Source of the DNA: an uncultured Alphaproteobacteria bacterium
GTDB lineage: Bacteria > Pseudomonadota > Alphaproteobacteria > CAKMZR01
Direction: 5' to 3'
Length of the DNA: 37,109 bases
Assembly: GCA_929200455.1 (NCBI GenBank)
Contig: CAKMZR010000001.1
Span: forward strand, 1-37,109
In this document: positions 1-37,109 of the stretch, piece by piece
Layout of the letters: each line of letters starts with the position of its first letter
How positions within the stretch are numbered: position 1 is the first letter of the stretch
Notes under the pieces: generated by a model
Told to the model about the DNA's origin: nothing
Databases searched by the model: none
Seen by the model: the letters and a program-made list of their open reading frames with translations, nothing else
Program-made: the position numbers and the translations under genes

Positions 1-25
1 AACACCCCATTTTTTCGCTAATTTT
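1..25. repeat. Left copy of a 25-nt imperfect direct repeat present at both window ends (AACACCCC-A-TTTTTTCGCTAATTTT)
   Basis: 1-25 matches 37085-37109 at 24/25 positions (position 9 A versus 37093 C); read directly from sequence. Confidence 0.9.
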
Positions 26-32
26 CAAATCG

Positions 33-413
33 GTGGTCAGGACTTTTTTTATGGATGATGATATAAACGAGCTCGAGCGGCGATTGAAAAAAGAGCAGAT
101 ACGGAAGACGGCGGCTGATGCGAGAAAGGCTGAGGTTGTGGCTGACCAAGCGGAAGGCAATGTTCTCCCAGTTGCGAGTGTTCAACAAATGCTGTCAATT
201 TTTCAACGGAACATGAACGCTCCGTTGCGTGATTTTCCTGATATTTTGGTGAAAGATGTCATGCATCTTTTCCCATCAAAGAACAGAAAGAAGGCGGAGA
301 TGGAGTTGCGGCGGAGTGCTGAGTTGCTTTGTGAGAAAATGAACGGCGTCTTGACAAATCCTGATAGCTTGATTTTCACTGATGAGGGGGAGGAGGAAAA
401 AAATGAGAAATGA
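33..413 (+). CDS. Putative terminase small subunit (start uncertain: GTG 33 or ATG 51)
   Basis: Small charged ORF immediately upstream of and overlapping the large terminase gene. Assigned by position only; no clear SD. Confidence 0.4.
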   Translation: MVRTFFMDDDINELERRLKKEQIRKTAADARKAEVVADQAEGNVLPVASVQQMLSIFQRNMNAPLRDFPDILVKDVMHLFPSKNRKKAEMELRRSAELLCEKMNGVLTNPDSLIFTDEGEEEKNEK

Positions 414-2346
414 TGAGAGTGGGTATGCGGATGTAGGTGACGTCTTTGCAAAAGTTTGGGAGGCTTCAAAGTTTAAAAAGAGGATAAAGTTGGCGGAGTG
501 GGCTAGTCAATTTAGGCGTATGAGCAATGTTGATTCGGCTCTCTCAAAATGGTCATCGTCACTTGTCCCTTGTTCAGAAGGGGTGATGAACGCTTTGAAT
601 TCTGGGAAGTATCGGCGGTTCACTTTGGTGGCACCGACACAAACCCTCAAAACAGAAATCATTCTGAACAAAACACTTTACCATATTGACAGAGAACCGA
701 CTGGTATTTTGATTGTTTTCCCAGATGAAAAGCTGGCACGAGGTTTCTCAAAAGGGCGTTTGACCAACGCAATTAATGCAACGTTTGGTGAAGGGTCCCA
801 GCTTTATCAAAGCGTTGAGGTTGATCGCGGTCGGGGGAGGCAGGCACAGGACAACACCATCGAGAGAAAAGTGACTATGAACGGCACTGAGATTGATATT
901 GTTTCGGTCTTGGCGAAAACGTCAACCATATCACGTCCTCGTGCGTTGGTTTTTGCGGATGAGGTGGATCACTACCCAGACGCAACGCGGCACCTTGACG
1001 ACCTGTACGGCAGAACACAGACCTTTATCAACGGTCAGCTTGTGCAGTCTTCGGCTCCGAAGGGTGATCATTCTGTGATTTTGGCACAGTACTATAAAAG
1101 CTACGGCTTTATTTGGAACTTGAAGTGTGTTAATTGCAGGTCATTTTTTGCACCTGAGTGGGAGATGGTCAGAGAAACAAACGCGGGGGGGCGGCTGAAG
1201 TGTCCGTGCTGTGATAAGCTTTTGACACAAAACATGATAGAGAGAGGCAATAAGGCGGGGAAGTGGTTGCACGATCCGAAAACCTCACCAATAGAAGGTT
1301 TACACATTGGACACAGATGCAACGCGTTTGCATCACCCTTCATAACGCTTGATGAGTTGATTGCTGAGCATAAAATCGCGGTGGCTTTGTTTGAGGAAAA
1401 TGCAGATGACGGCGGCTTACAAGCCTTCTTCAACAACAGAATGACCCAGAATGTGGCGGTGAAACCAATCATGGGAGAGGGCTTTGACCCGTCATCTTTG
1501 CGTAAGGGTTTTACGGGTAAATCATTACCTTTGGAAGTTGACTTTTTGACGTGTGCTATAGATACTCAAGACCAAAGGATTGAGTTTGAGGTGGTGGGGT
1601 GGTCTTGGGATTTGCAAAAAAGGTGGGGCGTGCAATACGGCAAAATTGCGATGCCTAATTCTTATGGCTCTCCTGCCACTCCTTCTGATCCGCAACTTTG
1701 GTTGGCGTTTAAGAAAATGGTCTGGAATCATCCTTACGAAACCGTGGGCGGTAAGAAGCTGGGAATATGTGCGGTGATGGTGGATAGTGGTGGGCATTAC
1801 ACGCGGCAGATTATGAAGTTTTGTCATAATCATAAAAACAGTTTGTTTATTCCGATAAAGGGAGTTTCCTTGGAAAGGCAAGATGCACAGACATGTTCAC
1901 CTTTCTCATTCAACTCGTGGCGGCGTTCGTACGGAAAAAACTGGGAGAATAAACCTTACATGATAAATACCAACTTTCTGAAGTCATACCTTTTCCGTGA
2001 ATTGGCGGCGTCTGAGAAAAAAACAGGGAATTGGCAATATGCAAAAGGTGGGGGCTATGATGATGTTTTTTTCACGAACCTTCTGACCTCAGAAATTCAA
2101 GATATTGTGAGGAGTCGGAATGGCAAGGTGAGTGTGAGGTGGGTGCATCCTGATAGTAAAATAAGGAATGAACCTGTTGATTTAATGGTTTACAATTATG
2201 CGGCGGCAAATGTGATTTATCAACTTTTGGGGGGTAATATAAGTGGGGAAAACATTAAGGCGGTTCTGAAAAAAGTATATCGTGGGGATGAGAGATTTTT
2301 AGAGGTTGACAAAAACGGAGAAGTGGTTGATGATGGCGGTGAATGA
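403..2346 (+). CDS. terL: Terminase large subunit, lambda GpA-like type
   Basis: 648 aa from ATG 403, preceded by GGAGGAGG (ORF-track start 382 is less likely). Size, first-large-gene position and the Cys knuckle CVNCRSF...CPCC resemble GpA-family terminases. Confidence 0.8.
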   Translation: MRNDESGYADVGDVFAKVWEASKFKKRIKLAEWASQFRRMSNVDSALSKWSSSLVPCSEGVMNALNSGKYRRFTLVAPTQTLKTEIILNKTLYHIDREPTGILIVFPDEKLARGFSKGRLTNAINATFGEGSQLYQSVEVDRGRGRQAQDNTIERKVTMNGTEIDIVSVLAKTSTISRPRALVFADEVDHYPDATRHLDDLYGRTQTFINGQLVQSSAPKGDHSVILAQYYKSYGFIWNLKCVNCRSFFAPEWEMVRETNAGGRLKCPCCDKLLTQNMIERGNKAGKWLHDPKTSPIEGLHIGHRCNAFASPFITLDELIAEHKIAVALFEENADDGGLQAFFNNRMTQNVAVKPIMGEGFDPSSLRKGFTGKSLPLEVDFLTCAIDTQDQRIEFEVVGWSWDLQKRWGVQYGKIAMPNSYGSPATPSDPQLWLAFKKMVWNHPYETVGGKKLGICAVMVDSGGHYTRQIMKFCHNHKNSLFIPIKGVSLERQDAQTCSPFSFNSWRRSYGKNWENKPYMINTNFLKSYLFRELAASEKKTGNWQYAKGGGYDDVFFTNLLTSEIQDIVRSRNGKVSVRWVHPDSKIRNEPVDLMVYNYAAANVIYQLLGGNISGENIKAVLKKVYRGDERFLEVDKNGEVVDDGGE

Positions 2347-21630: not shown

Positions 21631-21916
21631 GAAGTTCAGGGTGAACAGCGACTACCAAATAAAAGTGGCGGAGGCTGTGTTGAAGTTTTATCATAGGCGG
21701 ATGATCGAGGAGACGGGGGGCATCGACAACGCAATCATGGTGTTCATTTTTGATACAAAAACGGAGATGTGGACAATGAATATTGCCTTTTTGTTGGCAG
21801 ACGGTAGAAAAGTCAACGTCCGACCAATGCGATTCCGTGAGGGGTGGCACGGCGTGGATCAGGTTGCATCTTTGAATGTCAATTACCCACCGCAAAGCAA
21901 CCTTGCGTTTGTCTGA
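21614..21916 (+). CDS. Hypothetical early protein
   Basis: ATG 21614 with AGAGGTGAAA upstream (ORF-track start 21533 overlaps the previous gene extensively); 100 aa. Confidence 0.5.
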   Translation: MQINLKKFRVNSDYQIKVAEAVLKFYHRRMIEETGGIDNAIMVFIFDTKTEMWTMNIAFLLADGRKVNVRPMRFREGWHGVDQVASLNVNYPPQSNLAFV

Positions 21917-21917
21917 G

Positions 21918-22244
21918 ATGAAAAGACAACCAATCGTCAGGACCCTTTTTCCTTATGTAGGAGGAAAAAGCAAGGCATTAAAACACATCATCGACTACCT
22001 CCCTCAAGAAGGCAGAGTGATTTCACCGTTTTTAGGGAGCGGCAAGATTGAATTTGTACTCGCCAAACGCGGCGTTGATGTCTACGGCTATGATGCGTTT
22101 CCTGAACTTGTAAACTTCTGGTTGTGCGTGAAAGAGGACGCGGAGAAGGTTTCCGATTTGGCAGTTGGTCTGGGATTTCCTAACAAAGAAAAGTTTTTGC
22201 AGATAAAACGCGATTTGGGGGATTTTAAGCAGAGGTTATTGTAG
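21918..22244 (+). CDS. dam: DNA adenine methyltransferase (Dam/D12 class), N-terminal fragment
   Basis: LFPYVGGKSK and SPFLGSGKIEF (AdoMet-binding region motifs). Ends at TAG 22242. Confidence 0.7.
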   Translation: MKRQPIVRTLFPYVGGKSKALKHIIDYLPQEGRVISPFLGSGKIEFVLAKRGVDVYGYDAFPELVNFWLCVKEDAEKVSDLAVGLGFPNKEKFLQIKRDLGDFKQRLL

Positions 22245-22263: not shown

Positions 22264-22632
22264 TTGACTGAAAATTGGGCAGAGAGAATAAAGAGTTTTT
22301 CCTTTCCTCATAATTTACATGTGAAACACCAAGATTTTATAGAGACGTTGTCAGGTCATTCTGGTGAGTTTTTTTATTGTGACCCTCCGTACTATAAAGG
22401 CGGCGGTTATTATGGGGTGAATGGCGAATATTGCAACGGTTTCAACCACGAGATGTTGCGTGATTTGTTGTCGAAAGAGGGGCTGTGGGTGCTGAGTTAT
22501 GGCGATTGTGAGGAGGTGAGAGATTTATATACCAATTTCAGGTTGATTGAGTTGAAAATACCATACGGAAACAGAGGGCAGGTAGGCAGAGAACTTTTGA
22601 TTTTCGGTGACGACGTCAGGTTTCTATTATAA
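22264..22632 (+). CDS. dam: DNA adenine methyltransferase, C-terminal fragment in the +1 frame (frame open from 22207)
   Basis: Catalytic DPPY motif (FFYCDPPYY). No independent ATG or SD; the ORF-track start is TTG. Confidence 0.65.
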   Translation: MTENWAERIKSFSFPHNLHVKHQDFIETLSGHSGEFFYCDPPYYKGGGYYGVNGEYCNGFNHEMLRDLLSKEGLWVLSYGDCEEVRDLYTNFRLIELKIPYGNRGQVGRELLIFGDDVRFLL

Positions 22633-25507: not shown

Positions 25508-25841
25508 AAAAAGAGTGACAATAACTGAAGAGATGCGGCATAAGGTGCGTTTTGCTCTTTATTATCCCATCAGAGGCGGTGGAAAACACGCTATGGTTGC
25601 AAAAGACTTCACGGCATTTACACCTTCTTGGATGAGCAATCTTCTCACGGGGGAATCTGAAGGCAAAAAATGCAATATTGAGCGGATTGAACACATTGCG
25701 GCGAGGACGGGGTATGACCTTGACTTTTTTATGGATGAAAGTCAGAAGGTGTGTATAGCGGAAATCGTCTTGATTTGTGCAAAGGAATTCAACAAGGGGT
25801 TGAAAAGCGGTAATAATCTCAATGAAGGAAAAAAATCATGA
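25494..25841 (+). CDS. Putative helix-turn-helix DNA-binding protein
   Basis: 115 aa. The segment AMVAKDFTAFTPSWMSNLLTGE...IERIEHIAARTGYDLDFF resembles an XRE/Cro-type HTH layout; GGAGGAGG upstream. Confidence 0.45.
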   Translation: MVTSKKRVTITEEMRHKVRFALYYPIRGGGKHAMVAKDFTAFTPSWMSNLLTGESEGKKCNIERIEHIAARTGYDLDFFMDESQKVCIAEIVLICAKEFNKGLKSGNNLNEGKKS

Positions 25842-26701
25842 TTGAAGAAACTGTTGACCATAAAGCAAAAAAGGCGTCTCCGTCTATTTTGTGGCGGGTT
25901 CACACGATGACCCCACGGCAAGCTTTCACGGAGAGTGAGCAAACGGACGACATGTTGCTCGGTTCACTCATCCATAGGTTGATTTTGGATGATGGCACAA
26001 TAAGTGAGAAGTATCATCCTCTTGATTTTGGCAAGAGGCGGGGGACAAAAGAGTGTCAGGCGTTGGAGGAGAGGGGCATCACACCCGTACCACACAACTT
26101 ATGGATGCGTGCAAAGTATGCGGCGTGGGCGGTTGAGTACAACAAAAGGGCAAATAACTTGATAAGGGCGGCGAAGAGGGTCGGTGACGTTGAGAAGAGG
26201 TTGCAAGCTGAGGTTGTATTGGGTGATACGGAGATTGAGGTCAATGGCGTTTTTGACGCGACCTTCACCGATGAAAAGGGCTTTTTTATTGTCGATGTGA
26301 AGACCTGTTCAAAAATGCCACTTAAGAGCGAATTTATCAAAAAAATAAGAGACGGTGGAATGGGGATGAAGGCGGCGGCTTATATGATGATTGCGGATTA
26401 CAACCAACTCAAAAAAGCAGACGGCAACAACTGGTTCGTGTGGATTTTTGTTTCTACAACCTCACCCTTTGAAGTCAGGGTGGTTTATGCGGCGGCTGAT
26501 GATAGAATTATTGCTGAGGGTGAGGTTGATTTTTGGGCGGCGTTAGAGAAATTCCGATGGATACAATCGCAAGATGAAATTCCAGACGAAAGGGGTACAC
26601 ATGACGGTATTGATTTAAGTGAAATCTGGTATGAAAAAGCACTTTACTCAACCGTTGCAAACCAACCAACACAACCAGAAAGCGAGTTTGATGATGAGTA
26701 A
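25838..26701 (+). CDS. PD-(D/E)XK-type recombination exonuclease
   Basis: 287 aa with GVFDAT ... FFIVDVKTC (D...D/ExK arrangement). Lies next to an annealase-like gene. Confidence 0.55.
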   Translation: MIEETVDHKAKKASPSILWRVHTMTPRQAFTESEQTDDMLLGSLIHRLILDDGTISEKYHPLDFGKRRGTKECQALEERGITPVPHNLWMRAKYAAWAVEYNKRANNLIRAAKRVGDVEKRLQAEVVLGDTEIEVNGVFDATFTDEKGFFIVDVKTCSKMPLKSEFIKKIRDGGMGMKAAAYMMIADYNQLKKADGNNWFVWIFVSTTSPFEVRVVYAAADDRIIAEGEVDFWAALEKFRWIQSQDEIPDERGTHDGIDLSEIWYEKALYSTVANQPTQPESEFDDE

Positions 26702-27566
26702 TATTGGACACAACAACCCTCCTGCGGCAGAGTTTGAAGATATTCTACTGGAGATTGAAAACATGAAGATGGGTGGGATTGAGGAGGTGCAACAGGCGGT
26801 GATGGAGTTGAAGGATGGCTTGACTTTGACGGAAGCTGAGTTGAGAGATGAAGAGCATTTAATCCTCAGGGAAGAGGATGTACATGGCTTGAAACAACTT
26901 GAGGTTGATGCATCTCAACTGCTTAAGAACATAAATAATGGCAGAATCGGAATTGACAAGAGGTTGCAATCTTTCAACGATCACAATCGTGGGGAAATTA
27001 AAGAAATAACTCAGCATTTTGAAAAGCTGAAAGGTCAGTTGAGAGACCTTCTTAAGGTTTCACAGCGTCGTGCAGAGAAGGTTGAGAGGGAGCGTCGTCA
27101 AGAGCAACTCAGGGTTGCAGAAGAAGAGCGACGCAAGGCGGAGGAGCAGGATAGGATTTTGCGTGAAAAACAACTCGAAGCACAGAGAAATGCTGATGAA
27201 AAAGAGGCGGCAAAGATTGCAGAAGAGAGGCGGGCGGCAGAAGAGTTGGCGGTGGAAGCAACGGCAAACCTTGGAGTTGCGGCGGCGGCGGCGTCAGAAG
27301 AGGACGTCGTCAAGAAAGACGTGTCTTCATTCTTGAAAGTTAAGAATGATGGGCATATAGTGCTGAGTACGGGTGACGACCTGCGGAAGTTTATGTATGA
27401 AAATCCACATCTGTTTACCCTAAATCAAGCTATGGTTGCAACAATGGCAAGAGAAGAGTTGACAAAACTCAAAAAAGCGGGTGGAAAGTTAGTCGGTGAA
27501 GTGGTCGAGATAGACCTCATTCCTGGCTTGAAAATCAACATCATAGAACAGGACAAAATGCGATGA
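26691..27566 (+). CDS. Hypothetical coiled-coil protein (N-terminal IGHNNPP motif)
   Basis: ATG 26691 overlaps the upstream stop; 291 aa with a central highly charged helix (ERERRQEQLRVAEEERRKAEE...). Confidence 0.55.
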   Translation: MMSNIGHNNPPAAEFEDILLEIENMKMGGIEEVQQAVMELKDGLTLTEAELRDEEHLILREEDVHGLKQLEVDASQLLKNINNGRIGIDKRLQSFNDHNRGEIKEITQHFEKLKGQLRDLLKVSQRRAEKVERERRQEQLRVAEEERRKAEEQDRILREKQLEAQRNADEKEAAKIAEERRAAEELAVEATANLGVAAAAASEEDVVKKDVSSFLKVKNDGHIVLSTGDDLRKFMYENPHLFTLNQAMVATMAREELTKLKKAGGKLVGEVVEIDLIPGLKINIIEQDKMR

Positions 27567-28267
27567 ATAATTCATGGACAAATGAGCAAGAGGAGATGCA
27601 GTCTTCTGTGCCTCAGAAAACTCAACCAAAAAAACAGCCTCTCAAAAAGAAAGAGAGCTCGGCGTTTGACAATGCGACGACGATTGGTGGCTTTGAAAAT
27701 GACGACTCTTGGTTGCAAAAAAGGGAGGAGGTAGAGAGGGCGTATTTTGCTTTTTACAAGATAGGTCAACCCACAAGTGACCTTGATGGGTATTTGCACG
27801 CGGCGGGCGTCGGCTTCATGCAACAGTTTTTGATGGAATTACCATTCGGCAAAAAACAATTCCACGTTGCAAGATTTGCGGGTTCTTACACTCCTATTTT
27901 CTCTTATCACTCAAAACTTGCCTATGCTTTGAATTTACGGGGTGAGGATGGGAGGAAATTGGTCAAGAGGGTAAACTGCAACTTTAAGTATAATGACGAT
28001 GGTGAACCTTTGACGTGCATTGCAACCATAGATACTCATGATGTTGAGGGGTTCGTGGGCTATGAAATCACCAAAACCCTTGCAAAAAGGATGGAGCAGA
28101 ATTCAACCGAGAAGAGCATGTGGCGGCGAGAACCTGAGACCATGTGGGAAAAAACAACCTTGAGTAGAGCACTGGATAGATTGCAAGGGATGCAAGAAAT
28201 CTATGATGAGACGGCGGAGACGTCTTTTGATGTGCAAAATTCAACCAAAAAGCGACCATTCGACTGA
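27563..28267 (+). CDS. Putative single-strand annealing protein (RecT-like)
   Basis: 234 aa. The C-terminal motif MWRREPETMWEKTTLSRALDRL resembles the RecT-family signature; lies in a module with the exonuclease. Confidence 0.45.
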   Translation: MNNSWTNEQEEMQSSVPQKTQPKKQPLKKKESSAFDNATTIGGFENDDSWLQKREEVERAYFAFYKIGQPTSDLDGYLHAAGVGFMQQFLMELPFGKKQFHVARFAGSYTPIFSYHSKLAYALNLRGEDGRKLVKRVNCNFKYNDDGEPLTCIATIDTHDVEGFVGYEITKTLAKRMEQNSTEKSMWRREPETMWEKTTLSRALDRLQGMQEIYDETAETSFDVQNSTKKRPFD

Positions 28268-32475: not shown

Positions 32476-34179
32476 ATGAACGTCCGACCATATCAACAAA
32501 AGGCGATCCGAGATGTCTTGTCATTTTGGCAGGGCGGCGGTGAGAGTGTCATGGTGCAAATGCCGACGGGTGCGGGCAAGGGACATGTGGCGGGTGAATT
32601 GCTTAAGATATGCTCTTCACAGGTGAAATCGTCTTTATTCATTGTGCATAAAAAGACTTTGATAGATCAATTTTCACAGCGGTTCAGGACAACCCACGGT
32701 TTATCTCCTGCGATATGGTCTAATGCCAATCGGGGCATTATGGTCAGGCGGTGGATTGCGAATGAGCGGCGGTTGCGGCGGGGTGCGGTGGTGCTGGGTA
32801 CACCACAGGCGTTGACAAGAACGGGGGCTTTTCCGAGTGTTGATAAGGGTGGTTTTGAGTATGTTTTTTGGGATGAGGCACACCACATAGGTGCAGAAAC
32901 TTGGCAACTCATTCTTGATAGGTTGAGGAAAGACACGCAACTCAAGGTTGTGGGTTTTTCGGCGACTCCGATGAGGGGTAACGGTGAGGGGTTGAGCAAG
33001 TGGTTTCAAAAGTTGATTTGTCCGACAACTCCCGAAGAGTTGATTTTGGACGGGCATCTTGTGCCTGTGAAGGCGTTTGTACCAGAAAAAAAGAAGGCGA
33101 TAGAGTTGCGGGTTGCGGCGGGTGCGAAGAGGCTGGCGTTTGATGACTTTTCATCTACGGAAATCTCGGCAGGGTTGAAAAAGGTCAAGATTTGGGGTGA
33201 CTTGGCAAAGAACTATAAGAAAATTGCAACCAATCATGACGGCACGTACAAGAGGGGTGCGGTGTTCTGTGCGTCAATCCCTGATGCGGAGAGGGCTGTT
33301 GATTTGTACAACCATAGCGGGATTAATGCGGTGTGTCTTCATTCACGGATGGAAGAGCATGAGAAAGAGAACGCTCTTGACGATTTCAGAGATGGAAAAG
33401 TTGATTTGTTGGTGAGTGTCGAGATGGTGACGGAGGGGTTTGACCTGCCTGAACTAGAGGTTGTAGTTTTCTTAGCTCCGACAAGGTCTTTGATAAAGTT
33501 TATGCAATGTGCTGGGCGTATGATGCGACCTGCGGCGGGTAAGCAAAACGGCTTTATTATTGATCACGTGGGGAACGTTTTGCAACACGGCATGCCAGAT
33601 GAGCATCGCAATTGGTCGTTGGATATGGAGAAGGTGAGGGGTGACAGAGGCACCAATCAAGAAATAACAACCTTTGCGTGTGATGAGTGCGGGTTTATGA
33701 ATAGAAAAGGGGTGTTGAAGTGTGGGAATTGCGGGGTGATGTTTCCGAAGAAGGGCGGTGACGGCGGGGATGGCGATGATGATTTGTTGTTTGATGATGA
33801 TAGTGAGTTGGTGGAGGTTGAGGACAAGGAAGAGCGGAAGCGGAAGTTTGCTTTTTACAATGTCATCAACGAGGAGTTGATTAATATGCGTCTTGAAGAG
33901 CAGGAGGAGAACCCAAACATGGCTGATGACCATTTTCCGTATAAGAAATTGACCATTTACCAGACAGAATACCTGAGAGAGGCGATGAGAGAGGACTGGG
34001 ATTGGAGGGCTGAGTTTTATAGGATTATGACGCGTGAGAAAGTGCCTGCAAAATATCAACCCAAAGTTGGCGGCTTGAGAATGGCGGTGATTTGTGAGGC
34101 GATGAAGAACAACCTGAAAGAGTGGTCTGAAAAGTTTGTGACAAAAGATGAAGTCGAAGAACAAATATCAACAACTTAA
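32476..34179 (+). CDS. Superfamily 2 DNA helicase (DEAH box) with C-terminal zinc ribbon
   Basis: Motif I MPTGAGKG, motif II FWDEAHH, helicase-C-like region and CDECGF...CGNCG. Confidence 0.8.
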   Translation: MNVRPYQQKAIRDVLSFWQGGGESVMVQMPTGAGKGHVAGELLKICSSQVKSSLFIVHKKTLIDQFSQRFRTTHGLSPAIWSNANRGIMVRRWIANERRLRRGAVVLGTPQALTRTGAFPSVDKGGFEYVFWDEAHHIGAETWQLILDRLRKDTQLKVVGFSATPMRGNGEGLSKWFQKLICPTTPEELILDGHLVPVKAFVPEKKKAIELRVAAGAKRLAFDDFSSTEISAGLKKVKIWGDLAKNYKKIATNHDGTYKRGAVFCASIPDAERAVDLYNHSGINAVCLHSRMEEHEKENALDDFRDGKVDLLVSVEMVTEGFDLPELEVVVFLAPTRSLIKFMQCAGRMMRPAAGKQNGFIIDHVGNVLQHGMPDEHRNWSLDMEKVRGDRGTNQEITTFACDECGFMNRKGVLKCGNCGVMFPKKGGDGGDGDDDLLFDDDSELVEVEDKEERKRKFAFYNVINEELINMRLEEQEENPNMADDHFPYKKLTIYQTEYLREAMREDWDWRAEFYRIMTREKVPAKYQPKVGGLRMAVICEAMKNNLKEWSEKFVTKDEVEEQISTT

Positions 34180-36544
34180 AGAAGAGTTAGACGTCAGGCG
34201 GTGGCTTGGCTTAAAAAACGGAGAGGTCAATATCAGGTGTCCATCGGCATCACATAACGACAAAGACCCGTCATGCACCGTGTTTTCGGATGGTTTTTTG
34301 TGTCATGGTTGTGGTTGGAAGGGTGATATTTGCGACTACATGGTAGAGACGGGGCAGGCGAGGACCAATTCTGAGGCTTACAACCTCTTGACTGGAAATC
34401 GCGGGAAGGTTGTAGAAAAAGAGGACAAGGGCGGCGGCGGGGGTAAGGACAAGCGATATAGACCTCCTGCATTTTCACCATTTCCTGAGGGGTTCACTAT
34501 GAACCGTGAGGTTGCGGCGTCAATACCGTATCGGAAAATGGGCGATGACGGCAAGTGGGAGGTGGTGGTTGACACACCTGCGGCGGTGTATTTGTACAGA
34601 TTGGCTGATGGGCGGGTGTGTACATTGGTCTCGCGATACAACCTAGAGGATGACAAAAAGGTCTTTAAGCAGTGGTGTTGGGATCGTCGGAAGAACAAGA
34701 TGGCATCTGGCAACTCATTTTTGGACACGGAGGACGGCAAGAACAACCATCCGTTGTACAATTTGGGTGCGATTATTCAAAATGTTGGTGGTGTGGTGGT
34801 GGTGGTTGAGGGCGAGAAGTGTGCTGAGCATCTCAATAAGGGTTTTGTTGATGCGGGGCTGGAGGGGCGTTATGTTGCGACGACGTTTTTGCAGGGATGC
34901 AAGAGCGTCAAGAAGACTGATTTGCAACCATTGCGTGAGCGTGAGGTGTTGTTTTGGGCAGATAACGACAAGCAGGGCAAGAAGGCGATGGTTGAGGTGG
35001 CGGCTCTTCTGGGGATACGGTCATCTGATAATGCGAGACACGTTAAGGTTGTGGCGGGTGCGGGCAATGACTGTGCGGATATTGATGCGGCAAAGGCTGT
35101 GCAACGTGTGGTTGATACGTATGAGAAGATGGTGGAATTGCGAGAGCGTGAAAAACACGTTGAGGTTGAGGTGGTTGACGACGATGAGGACGACGTTGAC
35201 GGTGAACTTGCACGTATTTGGGCTGATGGCGATCCTGATGAGATTGAGGCACCTGTGCAATCGACAAGACCTGATGCACCACCACCGTCATGTACGGCGA
35301 ATTGCACGCACTGGTTGCAACGTGAGATAGATGAAGGCTCTTTGCAGATGAAATTCAATGAGTTGAGGGGTGAGTGGGAGGTGACGGGGGCAAAAGGGCG
35401 AATAACTGCAATCAATTCACACACGGGAGGTCTCACTGATCCGATCACGTCTGCAATTCAAGGTCATCTTGAGAGGCGTTTGGGTATACCATTGGTTGAA
35501 AAACACATCAACGCGGGGCTTGACACGCTCTCTTTATCACGTAAAAACCGCTTTCATCCTGTAAAAGACTACCTCAAGACGCTGGAGTGGGATGGTGTAG
35601 AGCGGTTGAATTACTGGTTTGCGGAGGCTTATGAACCCGATCCGATGAGGTGCGATCCCGCTTGGGTTGCAATCGCGGCGAGAAAGTTTCTTATCGGTGC
35701 AGTTGCAAGGGTGTTGGGTGAGGGTTTTGTGAAGAACGATAACATGTTTTTGATAGAGAGCAATTCTGGGGGTGTTGGTAAGTCTGAGGGGATGGAGGTG
35801 TTGTTTTTTGGTCATGTGATTTACATGAAAAAGTCTTCAGAACCATTCGGTGAAGATGCGTTGATTTCATATGGCAAGCACTGGCTGGTGAGCGATGATG
35901 ATTTTTCGGTGACGAGTAAGAAGGCTCATGAAGACCTCAAAACGTTTTTATCCCTGAAAAAAGAGGACGTGAGACGGAAGTACGCACGCAATTCTCAAAA
36001 CATGACAATAAAGTATGCGGTTGTGGGCAGTGTGAATATTCAAGGCGAGGGGCGTTATTTACCAGCGGATGACAACCTGCGGCGGTTTTGGGTGGTGTCA
36101 TCGGGGAAGAAGGCTGAGAGTGCAAAGTCGACGATTGACTACCTGAAGAGAAATCGGGATCAGTTGTGGGCAGAGGCGGTGAAGATGTATTCTGAGGGTG
36201 AACTTTGGTGGTTGACCAAGGATGAAGAGATAGATTTACAGAACAAAGCAGTGGCATCACGGCGTAAGGTCAAGACGTTGGTGGACAAAATCGACTATTA
36301 CCTCGTGAAAACGGATCACCAGTCACACTATCCAGTCGCAACTCTCCCACAGAAGGTCATCGGGGTGTCCGATTCACGCGGCATCAAAGATAGAGACATG
36401 GAGGCGGTAGCAAATCGGATGAGTGAGTTGGGCTATTCAAAGGCAAATAAGCGTGTGAGATTGATAAATGATGACGGTGTTTCATCGAAGAGTTGCACGG
36501 TGTGGTGTTGGGTGAAGAAGGGCGGCGACGGCGATGACAGTTAA
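34148..36544 (+). CDS. DNA primase (zinc finger + TOPRIM) fused to a VirE-like P-loop NTPase domain
   Basis: Zinc finger CPSASHNDKDPSC...CHGCGWKGD. TOPRIM motifs VVVVEGEKC and WADNDKQG, then an acidic linker. VirE-like HPVKDYLKTLEWDGVERLNYW and Walker A SGGVGKS. Confidence 0.8.
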   Translation: MKSKNKYQQLKEELDVRRWLGLKNGEVNIRCPSASHNDKDPSCTVFSDGFLCHGCGWKGDICDYMVETGQARTNSEAYNLLTGNRGKVVEKEDKGGGGGKDKRYRPPAFSPFPEGFTMNREVAASIPYRKMGDDGKWEVVVDTPAAVYLYRLADGRVCTLVSRYNLEDDKKVFKQWCWDRRKNKMASGNSFLDTEDGKNNHPLYNLGAIIQNVGGVVVVVEGEKCAEHLNKGFVDAGLEGRYVATTFLQGCKSVKKTDLQPLREREVLFWADNDKQGKKAMVEVAALLGIRSSDNARHVKVVAGAGNDCADIDAAKAVQRVVDTYEKMVELREREKHVEVEVVDDDEDDVDGELARIWADGDPDEIEAPVQSTRPDAPPPSCTANCTHWLQREIDEGSLQMKFNELRGEWEVTGAKGRITAINSHTGGLTDPITSAIQGHLERRLGIPLVEKHINAGLDTLSLSRKNRFHPVKDYLKTLEWDGVERLNYWFAEAYEPDPMRCDPAWVAIAARKFLIGAVARVLGEGFVKNDNMFLIESNSGGVGKSEGMEVLFFGHVIYMKKSSEPFGEDALISYGKHWLVSDDDFSVTSKKAHEDLKTFLSLKKEDVRRKYARNSQNMTIKYAVVGSVNIQGEGRYLPADDNLRRFWVVSSGKKAESAKSTIDYLKRNRDQLWAEAVKMYSEGELWWLTKDEEIDLQNKAVASRRKVKTLVDKIDYYLVKTDHQSHYPVATLPQKVIGVSDSRGIKDRDMEAVANRMSELGYSKANKRVRLINDDGVSSKSCTVWCWVKKGGDGDDS

Positions 36545-36573
36545 TGAGAACCATTATCAAAAAGCGTTCAAAG

Positions 36574-36999
36574 TGTTCACGATTGTGCGTGACCTCATGA
36601 ACATTTTCAAACCCCAGAAAACCGCGGTGTTGAACCGTGTTTACGTGCAAAACCTGTTCACTACCTATGAACAGCTACAGACCACGGATTCCGTGGCGTT
36701 GAGGGCAAAAAAGAGGTTATTTAGATTTAAAAAGGGGTTAAAGTTTTTTCAGAACACTGTTTTATGCATATTATTCATTAAATGGGGTGCAATGTGCTGT
36801 ACAGAAAAAAGTTCTGGGGTGTTTTTTTTCTTAATAACGGCTTTTTGGGCTTCAATCCCAATGCCACCGCGGGCTACAGCTGTTCACTACCAGTTAACAC
36901 CTTGCTTCAAAAACCACACTCAACCATGCGGATTTCTGCTGTTCACTGCTGTTCACTACTTCACGCACAATCGTGAACATTCCGTGAACACAATGAACA
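36574..36999. repeat. Non-coding iteron / inverted-repeat region (candidate origin of replication and/or terminase recognition region)
   Basis: Ten TGTTCA/TGAACA hexamers in 426 bp, CTGTTCACTACC twice, tandem GCTGTTCACT twice. A perfect 19-bp inverted repeat pairs 36574-36592 with 36961-36979. No credible ORF. Confidence 0.6.
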
Positions 37000-37084
37000 C
37001 ACGCTTAAACCAAAACCCCAGAAAATCAACGTTTCAAAAAAATCTACAAAGGTACTACAAAATAAAGTATGATTGCGGGAACAA

Positions 37085-37109
37085 AACACCCCCTTTTTTC
37101 GCTAATTTT
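37085..37109. repeat. Right copy of the 25-nt imperfect terminal direct repeat
   Basis: 24/25 identical to 1-25. Confidence 0.9.

Follow-up and report, generated by a model that had tools for sequence, protein, structure and literature searches.

The closest described systems for the locus analysed here are the replication origins of the staphylococcal SaPI islands, in which 6-12 penta- or hexanucleotide iterons are located directly downstream of the rep gene, an AT-rich region is present near the centre, and at least two iterons are found on each side in opposite directions, the iterons being recognised by the C-terminal winged helix of Rep (PMC9371898). The structure of Rep of the staphylococcal island SaPI1 bound to DNA is represented by PDB entry 7PDS (PMC9371898), and the same origin organisation as in SaPIs applies to the PICIs of Gram-negative bacteria (PMC6092414).

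The DNA analysed in this study, hereafter called the window, is a whole contig of 37,109 bp, all long reading frames of which are located on the + strand. It contains a repeat region that is placed, on a circular map, between the gene of a 798-aa primase-helicase upstream and the terminase genes terS and terL downstream, and which is read here, with a probability of roughly 0.77, as the phage origin of vegetative replication, being of the pri-rep-ori type of SaPIs and PICIs. The anatomy of the region, the homology of the adjacent protein to SaPI1 Rep, and the recurrence at one position in relatives of repeat clusters that are specific to each lineage were computed directly, and together these three lines of evidence support the original prediction, according to which the region is an iteron-type origin on which the primase/P-loop fusion protein encoded next to it acts.

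With regard to the genomic setting, the window encodes a TerL of the lambda gpA type and a portal of the lambda type, and the TerL and portal genes are followed by a long run of + strand reading frames which presumably represent the head and tail genes. The next gene downstream of the repeat region on the circular map is terS, whose codon-usage score is typical for the genes of the window. If the open reading frame that crosses the repeat region (discussed below) is no gene, this region represents the only gap of more than ~210 bp between + strand frames in the window. GC skew is above 0 in every 1-kb interval and, considering that all genes are located on one strand and that the skew is positive throughout, it is uninformative as an origin marker. 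Close relatives of the repeat region were not found by blastn against 50,697 phage records, and IMG/VR contained no exact match to the tandem iteron pair. The four single metagenome matches to the 19-mer arm of the inverted repeat described below were dismissed as chance matches with no other similarity to the window. In addition, the repeat region gave no Rfam match to an RNA element at E values up to 1, and its counts of promoters and terminators are at chance level. The coordinates of the relevant features are collected in Table 1.

Table 1. Features of the repeat region and of its surroundings, with positions counted along the window.
Feature	Position	Strand	Description
Primase-helicase-initiator gene, PriRep-like	34148..36544	+	798 aa
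Coding part of the C-terminal domain	36245..36541	+	Residues ~700-798; predicted winged helix
Open reading frame	36534..37109	+	192 codons, runs off the window end
Left iteron set	36574..36673	both strands	Four TGTTCAY: 36574 (+), 36597 (-), 36655 (+), 36667 (-)
Left arm of 19-bp inverted repeat	36574..36592		One iteron plus GATTGTGCGTGA
Second repeat AAACCCCAGAAAA	36609..36621 (+), 37013-37025; inverted partial copy 36812-36820		Exact copies only in the repeat region
AT-rich centre	36706..36836		72-75% A+T; candidate DNA unwinding element
Right iteron set	36881..36999	both strands	Six copies: 36881, 36940, 36950 (+); 36973, 36984, 36993 (-)
Right arm of 19-bp inverted repeat	36961..36979		Perfect inverted match to left arm
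Stretch between last iteron and terS	37000..37109		Includes a 25-nt near-repeat of window 1-25
Small terminase gene terS	33..413, likely start ATG 51	+	phrog_57 E = 6e-5
Large terminase gene	382-2346	+	TerL of lambda gpA type

The hexamer TGTTCA is present on the + strand at 36574, 36655, 36881, 36940 and 36950, and on the - strand at 36598, 36668, 36974, 36985 and 36994, and all ten predicted positions were thereby recovered. When brought into the same orientation, the iterons yield the consensus TGTTCAY followed by K and R, and the first of them (36574) starts 29 nt past the stop codon of the primase-helicase gene (36542-36544). The left set consists of two head-to-head pairs with spacers of 17 nt and 7 nt (orientation + - + -), while the right set has the orientation + + + - - -, with close neighbours inside both triplets being 9-11 bp apart. 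Longer units had been proposed as well, and both CTGTTCACTACC at 36654 and 36880 and the tandem GCTGTTCACT at 36938 and 36948 are indeed present, as are the dyad CTGTTCA-N7-TGAACAG at 36654-36674, the palindromes at 36682-36696 and 36621-36628, and the repeat AAACCCCAGAAAA at 36609 and 37013 with its inverted partial copy at 36812. As had been described, the inverted repeat of 19 bp formed by 36574-36592 and 36961-36979 is perfect; it extends to 60 nt at 73% complementarity. The AT-rich stretch that had been noted within the region was found by a stability scan, the AT-rich centre ranking second lowest in the window for nearest-neighbour stability, at lengths of both 80 bp and 120 bp and at ~3 SD from the mean.

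Across the whole window, TGTTCA is not enriched, its 35 copies comparing with 33 expected, and 10 of these 35 fall within 426 bp (36574-36999). The count of ten copies in 426 bp as given in the original prediction stands, whereas the accompanying expectation of 0.2 had to be corrected to ~0.3 on the basis of the rest of the window. There are seven copies of the heptamer TGTTCAC in the gap as compared to four in the remaining 36.5 kb (Poisson P = 1.5e-12), and 13 sites were observed vs 2.0 expected when one mismatch was allowed. In a random-genome test, which omitted low-complexity hexamers and employed 300 order-3 Markov genomes that keep the 4-mer statistics of the window, the best hexamer count per 430-bp interval did not exceed 8, as compared to the 10 copies observed.

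The protein encoded directly upstream of the repeats carries a VapE-type P-loop helicase at residues 476-699 (Pfam VapE-like_dom, E = 5.8e-38), preceded by an N-terminal CHC2 zinc ribbon at residues 30-74 which is a weak match (Zn_ribbon_DnaG, E = 0.0018) under the curated cut-off. PHROG primase/helicase families match the 798-aa protein, its N-terminal 325 residues being labelled primase, and the Toprim-like motifs EGEKC and DxD are located on nearly invariant columns of the alignment. Among solved structures, the sole sequence match is that between residues 464-742 and SaPI1 Rep (7PDS; E = 4e-16 by phmmer). An AlphaFold2 model spanning residues 440-798 (pLDDT 79) was used as a Foldseek query and retrieved six chains of 7PDS first (E = 4e-14 to 3e-13, ~400 aligned columns), followed by the helicase of phage NrS-1 and then by SaPI5 PriRep. 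In the latter, a protein of 790 aa, the domains that are resolved (N-terminal tier, ATPase and C-terminal) occupy positions comparable to those of the 798-aa protein. The end of the model (residues ~711-790) displays the order helix-strand-helix-helix-strand-strand, and the C-terminal domain is accordingly described here as a predicted winged helix, which is presumed to be the reader of the iterons. Among relatives, this domain shows 6-20% identity to the window protein vs 27-32% for the helicase core, and such faster divergence fits a domain that determines specificity. The best homologues of the 798-aa protein are only 24-27% identical to it, and the genes scanned from 19.5-36.5 kb of the window revealed no further protein resembling an initiator. 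The true relatives of the 798-aa protein are the Rep and PriRep initiator-helicases of SaPIs and PICIs, and not the alpha protein of P4.

The window contains every sequence-level feature listed above for a SaPI/PICI origin. In both, the origin is located directly 3' of the initiator-helicase gene, two iteron sets of hexamer scale surround an AT-rich centre (the ten copies found here being within the published range of 6-12), and opposed iteron copies are present on each side of that centre. A self-loading helicase with a C-terminal winged helix is a further common element, both properties being predicted for the protein of the window from its sequence and its model. Primase is fused to Rep in SaPI5 PriRep (7OLA), as it is in the 798-aa protein, and the helicase part of the latter is homologous to SaPI1 Rep by sequence as well as by predicted fold.

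There are also differences. The host element is here no satellite island but a complete tailed-phage genome of 37 kb, with a terminase and a portal of lambda type. With its zinc ribbon and Toprim motifs, the primase part is DnaG-like, the word repeated in the iterons is a new one, and packaging genes directly adjoin the origin. Furthermore, an open frame spans the origin in the window, whereas SaPI/PICI origins have been described as being downstream of rep and not in a gene. The element was also considered as a PICI, for which an integrase, an Stl/Rpr repressor and helper dependence would be expected; this assignment was rejected for an element found to have its own TerL and portal and a genome of 37 kb. 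Therefore, the origin type is SaPI/PICI-like, and the element itself is not classed as a PICI.

Thirteen loci were compared in order to place the cluster in a wider context, comprising the window, seven homologue contigs and five further loci of one homologue lineage. Each whole locus was scanned, with no prior assumptions, for the densest cluster of a 7-mer in any 400-bp interval. In 10 of the 13 loci, this densest cluster is located at most ~150 bp from the stop codon of the homologous gene, and the clusters always have copies in both orientations. The repeated word differs, being TGTTCAC in the window, TTCCATAC in five loci, TTCCTAA in two, and CTGGGACG or AACCTCC elsewhere. One locus (L008) carries a CTGTCACC cluster at the stop of the helicase gene, but a denser cluster is present elsewhere in that locus, while L013 has a modest set (two copies of CCGTCCA opposite its complement) and L011 has weak repeats only. 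L014, a chromosomal island of Rhizobium by its appearance, has its cluster at the helicase gene, and no terminase is present in the 5 kb fetched for this locus. In all seven homologue contigs, the gene is directly followed on its 3' side by 290-650 bp in which gene calls are few or absent. Instead of an AT-rich centre, three relatives have a GC-rich tract of alternating purines and pyrimidines between their repeat sets. Within the lineage using TTCCATAC or TTCCTAA, grouping by overall C-terminal domain identity did not match grouping by iteron word.

Two further observations were made on the gaps of these loci: in L005, the gene caller placed a 190-aa gene on the minus strand over the iterons, and the gap of L008 is crossed by a fully open frame as well, on the other strand. 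Repeat-rich origins can yield long open frames.

The positions of these clusters also bear on the proposal that the TGTTCA repeats are cosB-like R sites, to which the small terminase would bind in order to position the large subunit at cos. Repeated protein-binding sites are also present in lambda cosB, the repeat region is located directly upstream of terS and terL on the circular map, and the TerL is of the lambda gpA (cos) type. However, the equivalent clusters in relatives accompany the helicase gene and are not tied to the terminase: they remain at the helicase gene where terL is ~1.6-4 kb away (L006, L007 and L013), and the position of the repeats at this gene is kept where the terminase belongs to another family (Terminase_6N in L008, TerL_ATPase in L011). 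Since neither the distance nor the type of the terminase alters where the clusters are found, the repeats are taken to serve the helicase-initiator rather than the terminase. Moreover, the repeats reach as far as 540 bp away from terS and are arranged, as in an origin, on both sides of an AT-rich tract. A cosB-like role, which the original prediction had offered as an alternative or additional function, is thus not supported, given that the clusters keep to the 3' end of the helicase gene, and is decidedly improbable.

A cos site is nevertheless expected upstream of terS, given the lambda gpA type of the TerL and the lambda type of the portal, and its most likely place may be the ~160 bp that follow the last iteron (36999) and precede the start of terS. 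The window closes with 25 nt that match its opening 25 nt except for one mismatch, and this 25-mer is found only at the two window ends. The same phage is represented by a second public assembly (37,026 bp), which begins at the same base as the window. The 25-nt end repeat may correspond to physical ends, to a tandem 25-mer, or to a shared assembly history.

The region was also considered as an operator array bound by a repressor, a late activator or LexA that controls a promoter reading into the terminase and structural genes. The position of the region, as the only long gap between + strand frames provided that the open frame is no gene, is consistent with such a promoter, and a weak sigma-70-like site is present in the AT-rich centre (36746-36774). 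The right iteron set includes the sequence GAAC-N7-GAAC at 36975-36989, which resembles the alphaproteobacterial LexA box. Promoter-like sites are, however, at chance level (2 found vs 1.1 expected), ten half-sites in both orientations over 430 bp do not constitute an operator layout, and no regulator gene adjoins the region. An origin accounts better for the association of such clusters with the helicase gene among distant relatives, and an operator array is considered improbable.

The region had been labelled non-coding in the original prediction, and this label needs qualification. From 36516 onwards, one + strand frame stays open up to the window end. Its first ATG (36534) precedes the primase stop by 11 nt, and when the map is closed to a circle the frame terminates at window 19-21 or 56-58, at terS or shortly ahead of it. 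It contains no stop codon vs 10-16 in each of the other five frames, and only one in 5000 dinucleotide shuffles produced a fully open frame. The region could consequently be regarded as an ordinary protein-coding gene of ~200 codons starting at ATG 36534, in which the repeats have no function of their own. The length of 192 open codons that shuffles rarely match, the overlap with the end of the primase gene and the stop near terS, which fit the tight gene packing of the window, and the fact that a public gene caller called the 36534 frame all agree with this explanation. The strength of the Shine-Dalgarno sequence of the 36534 start was not discriminating.

Composition points in the other direction. 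The codon-usage score of the frame is below that of all 45 genes, ~3 SD low, and clearly negative in the last third, and its GC skew is -0.10 vs +0.13 to +0.65 for all 46 genes, which places it 4 SD below; the region is the only stretch of the window where GC skew is at or below 0. Homologues of the frame product were absent among 5.8 billion and among 1.84 billion proteins, a Pfam match to the product was not obtained, and its single-sequence structure model has a pLDDT of 41. Coding alone, moreover, leaves ten inverted and direct copies of one hexamer without explanation, and the same pattern is found in gaps of relatives where no gene was called. The non-coding label is called into question by the open frame as such, and favoured by composition and by the missing homologues. 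An ordinary gene with incidental repeats is very unlikely indeed. Translation of the 36534 frame, as a separate matter, is doubtful but conceivable, and if it occurs the origin would be located inside a gene, as lambda ori is in gene O, so that the reading of the region as an origin would still hold.

The type I iteron of satellite phage P4 had been named as a possible parallel, and the GenBank record NC_001609 confirms it as TGTTCACC, present in both orientations with copies 9-11 bp apart. The region could in principle be a true homologue of P4 ori/crr, recognised by an alpha-type protein: its 7-nt core TGTTCAC is identical to that of the P4 type I iterons, and according to the same GenBank record crr is also located directly 3' of the alpha gene. 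Against this, no BLASTP similarity was found between the 798-aa protein and alpha, and a profile comparison (hhalign) gave a weak P-loop match with a probability of 12%. The full octamer TGTTCACC is absent from the region, as its seven TGTTCAC copies continue with T or G and never with C, and no second dense cluster of TGTTCAC/TGTTCAT is present in the window, where copies elsewhere are scattered. As the words found in relatives of the window protein are unrelated, the 7-mer shared with P4 is most simply attributed to coincidence, and true homology to P4 ori/crr is extremely unlikely.

The P4 likeness that had been claimed holds in the sense of a functional analogue with the same 7-nt core, and does not extend to membership of that family. 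In P4 alpha, primase, helicase and a C-terminal origin-binding part are joined in one polypeptide, as would be the case here if the predicted binding is correct, and both systems have short iterons in both orientations with a spacing of 9-11 bp. P4 requires two separated sites, ori and crr, whereas a single cluster is present in the window.

Lambda ori consists of iterons for the O protein plus an AT-rich region inside gene O, with four 19-bp repeats on one side of the AT-rich tract, and lambda O recruits the host DnaB helicase through P. The repeat region resembles it in that repeats, here putative initiator-binding sites, adjoin an AT-rich and possibly unwinding region and, if the 36534 frame is real, in the location of the origin inside a reading frame. 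It differs in that the initiator is here itself a helicase and in that repeats are present on both sides.

Origins of iteron plasmids combine DnaA boxes with direct repeats of 17-22 bp that all point the same way, and their Rep protein is no helicase. The repeats of the window, in contrast, are 6-9 bp in length and occur in both orientations, the initiator is a helicase, and no DnaA box (allowing up to one mismatch) was found in 36545-37084. Assignment to the iteron-plasmid origin type was rejected on account of these short repeats in two orientations and of the lack of a DnaA box in 36545-37084. What is shared with the RepA, pi and TrfA systems is the placement of short repeated initiator sites by an unwinding element (PMC4980987).

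Iteron binding, melting and origin activity at the repeat region are what we infer by analogy with SaPI Rep, and the following order of events may be envisaged. The C-terminal winged-helix domain of the 798-aa protein would read the TGTTCAY repeats, and the protein would assemble on both sides of the AT-rich centre, probably as one hexamer per iteron set. It would then melt this centre and load itself as the replicative helicase, after which the N-terminal DnaG-like primase would make the first primers and a host polymerase would take over. Later replication, aided by the RecE/RecT-like pair of the phage, would generate concatemers, and these would be cut at cos by the lambda-type terminase, presumably within the ~160 bp that separate the last iteron from terS.

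The design is a known one that is extended here, and no new mechanism is put forward. What is new is modest and consists of the occurrence of the SaPI-type design in a complete and otherwise unrelated tailed phage, of its recurrence across a wide set of VapE-type primase-helicase loci that each have their own word, and of the open frame that spans the copy of the origin in the window. A more far-reaching interpretation, which is tentative and unlikely as a whole, would be that this represents the general origin of a large and diverse group of tailed phages and islands with VapE-type primase-helicases, with iteron words particular to each lineage, with centres that are in some cases GC-rich, of alternating purines and pyrimidines, and prone to form Z-DNA, and with a location, in the phage studied here, inside a translated frame that bridges replication and packaging genes.

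For a phage without close relatives in the collections searched, the analysis provides a candidate origin together with a matching initiator. It also suggests a rule for annotation, namely that the strongest cluster of short repeats is to be sought at the 3' end of the gene for a VapE-type primase-helicase, where it is located in 10 of 13 loci. With sequence as the only input, this rule could locate the origins of numerous uncultured phages and islands. Finally, the iteron words specific to each lineage, together with the diverging winged-helix domains, could serve the study of how the specificity of an initiator changes.

An AT-rich centre has been described for the SaPI/PICI origins, whereas L006, L012 and L007, three loci carrying relatives of the 798-aa primase-helicase, are without one between their iteron arrays. 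The GC-rich tract that occupies this position (see table) has the sequence CACGCACACACGC...GCGCGTGTGTG, is palindromic in part and is of a Z-DNA-prone type. The iteron words themselves vary between members of a single lineage (proteins 52-70% identical to the primase-helicase homologue P0005), the first 400 bp 3' of the helicase gene containing TTCCATAC in five loci (L006, L012, L019, L020 and L023) and TTCCTAA in two (L021 and L022). These two sets of loci were not separable by overall identity of the C-terminal domain.

Coordinates of features in the window and at related loci
Feature	Location	Remark
GC-rich alternating purine/pyrimidine tract, 40-70 bp	L006 8500-8556; L012 7505-7545; L007 5956-6019	between two inverted iteron arrays
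Terminal 25-mer AACACCCC[A/C]TTTTTTCGCTAATTTT	window 1-25 and 37085-37109	copies differ at one C/A position
DNA methyltransferase family phrog_56 matches	window 21876-22244 and 22264-22632	two neighbouring frames of 122 aa each
Exonuclease VIII (RecE)-like gene	window 25838-26701	
RecT-family annealase gene	window 27563-28267	near RecE-like gene
Primase-helicase relative, protein P0002	L014 4737-7956	NCBI naming: from Rhizobium sp. BK316

At L014 the relative of the primase-helicase is directly preceded by a small HTH_17 gene (weak Pfam match), which we take to be AlpA-like, and is followed by AACCTCC iterons. The neighbouring genes are chromosomal in appearance (GGDEF/EAL, PIN_10/DUF433), and a terminase gene was not found in the 5 kb fetched; the whole resembles an alphaproteobacterial island of PICI- or P4-like type.

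Repeat-rich origins may give rise, as a recurrent by-product, to long open frames across their iteron regions. The presumed non-coding origin of the phage is traversed by a plus-strand frame lacking stops throughout window 36516-37109 (first ATG at 36534; 192 codons inside the window), which on the circular map runs past the window end to window 19-21 or 56-58. A fully open frame over this region was obtained in 1 of 5000 shuffles. From the ATG at 36534, codon usage and GC skew differ from those of every gene of the phage, and a search of two very large protein sets retrieved no homologues. Long open minus-strand frames, antisense to all neighbouring genes, are also present in the iteron gaps of two related loci, namely L008 (8104-8544; 0 stops versus 5-8 in the remaining frames) and L005 (8394-8966; called as a 190-aa gene).

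The alphaproteobacterial LexA box has the form GTTC-N7-GTTC, to which a single GAAC-N7-GAAC at window 36975-36989, made up by two adjacent iterons, is similar; this likeness is probably a by-product of iteron spacing.

The 25-mer shared by the window ends has no further copy anywhere else, and could stand for a junction with the repeat in tandem, for physical ends close to cos (the expected terminase cutting site) or for an assembly artefact. A second public assembly of 37,026 bp is identical to the window across the portion fetched (window 33148-37026) and, by coordinates, has the same starting base and a last base corresponding to window 37026.

The two 122-aa frames matching phrog_56 cover consecutive segments of the profile (positions 45-157, then 206-321) and represent a split or frameshifted methyltransferase gene. 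The RecE-like and RecT-family genes lie close together and therefore indicate that the phage has a recombination module of its own, which could act as a feeder of late, recombination-dependent replication.
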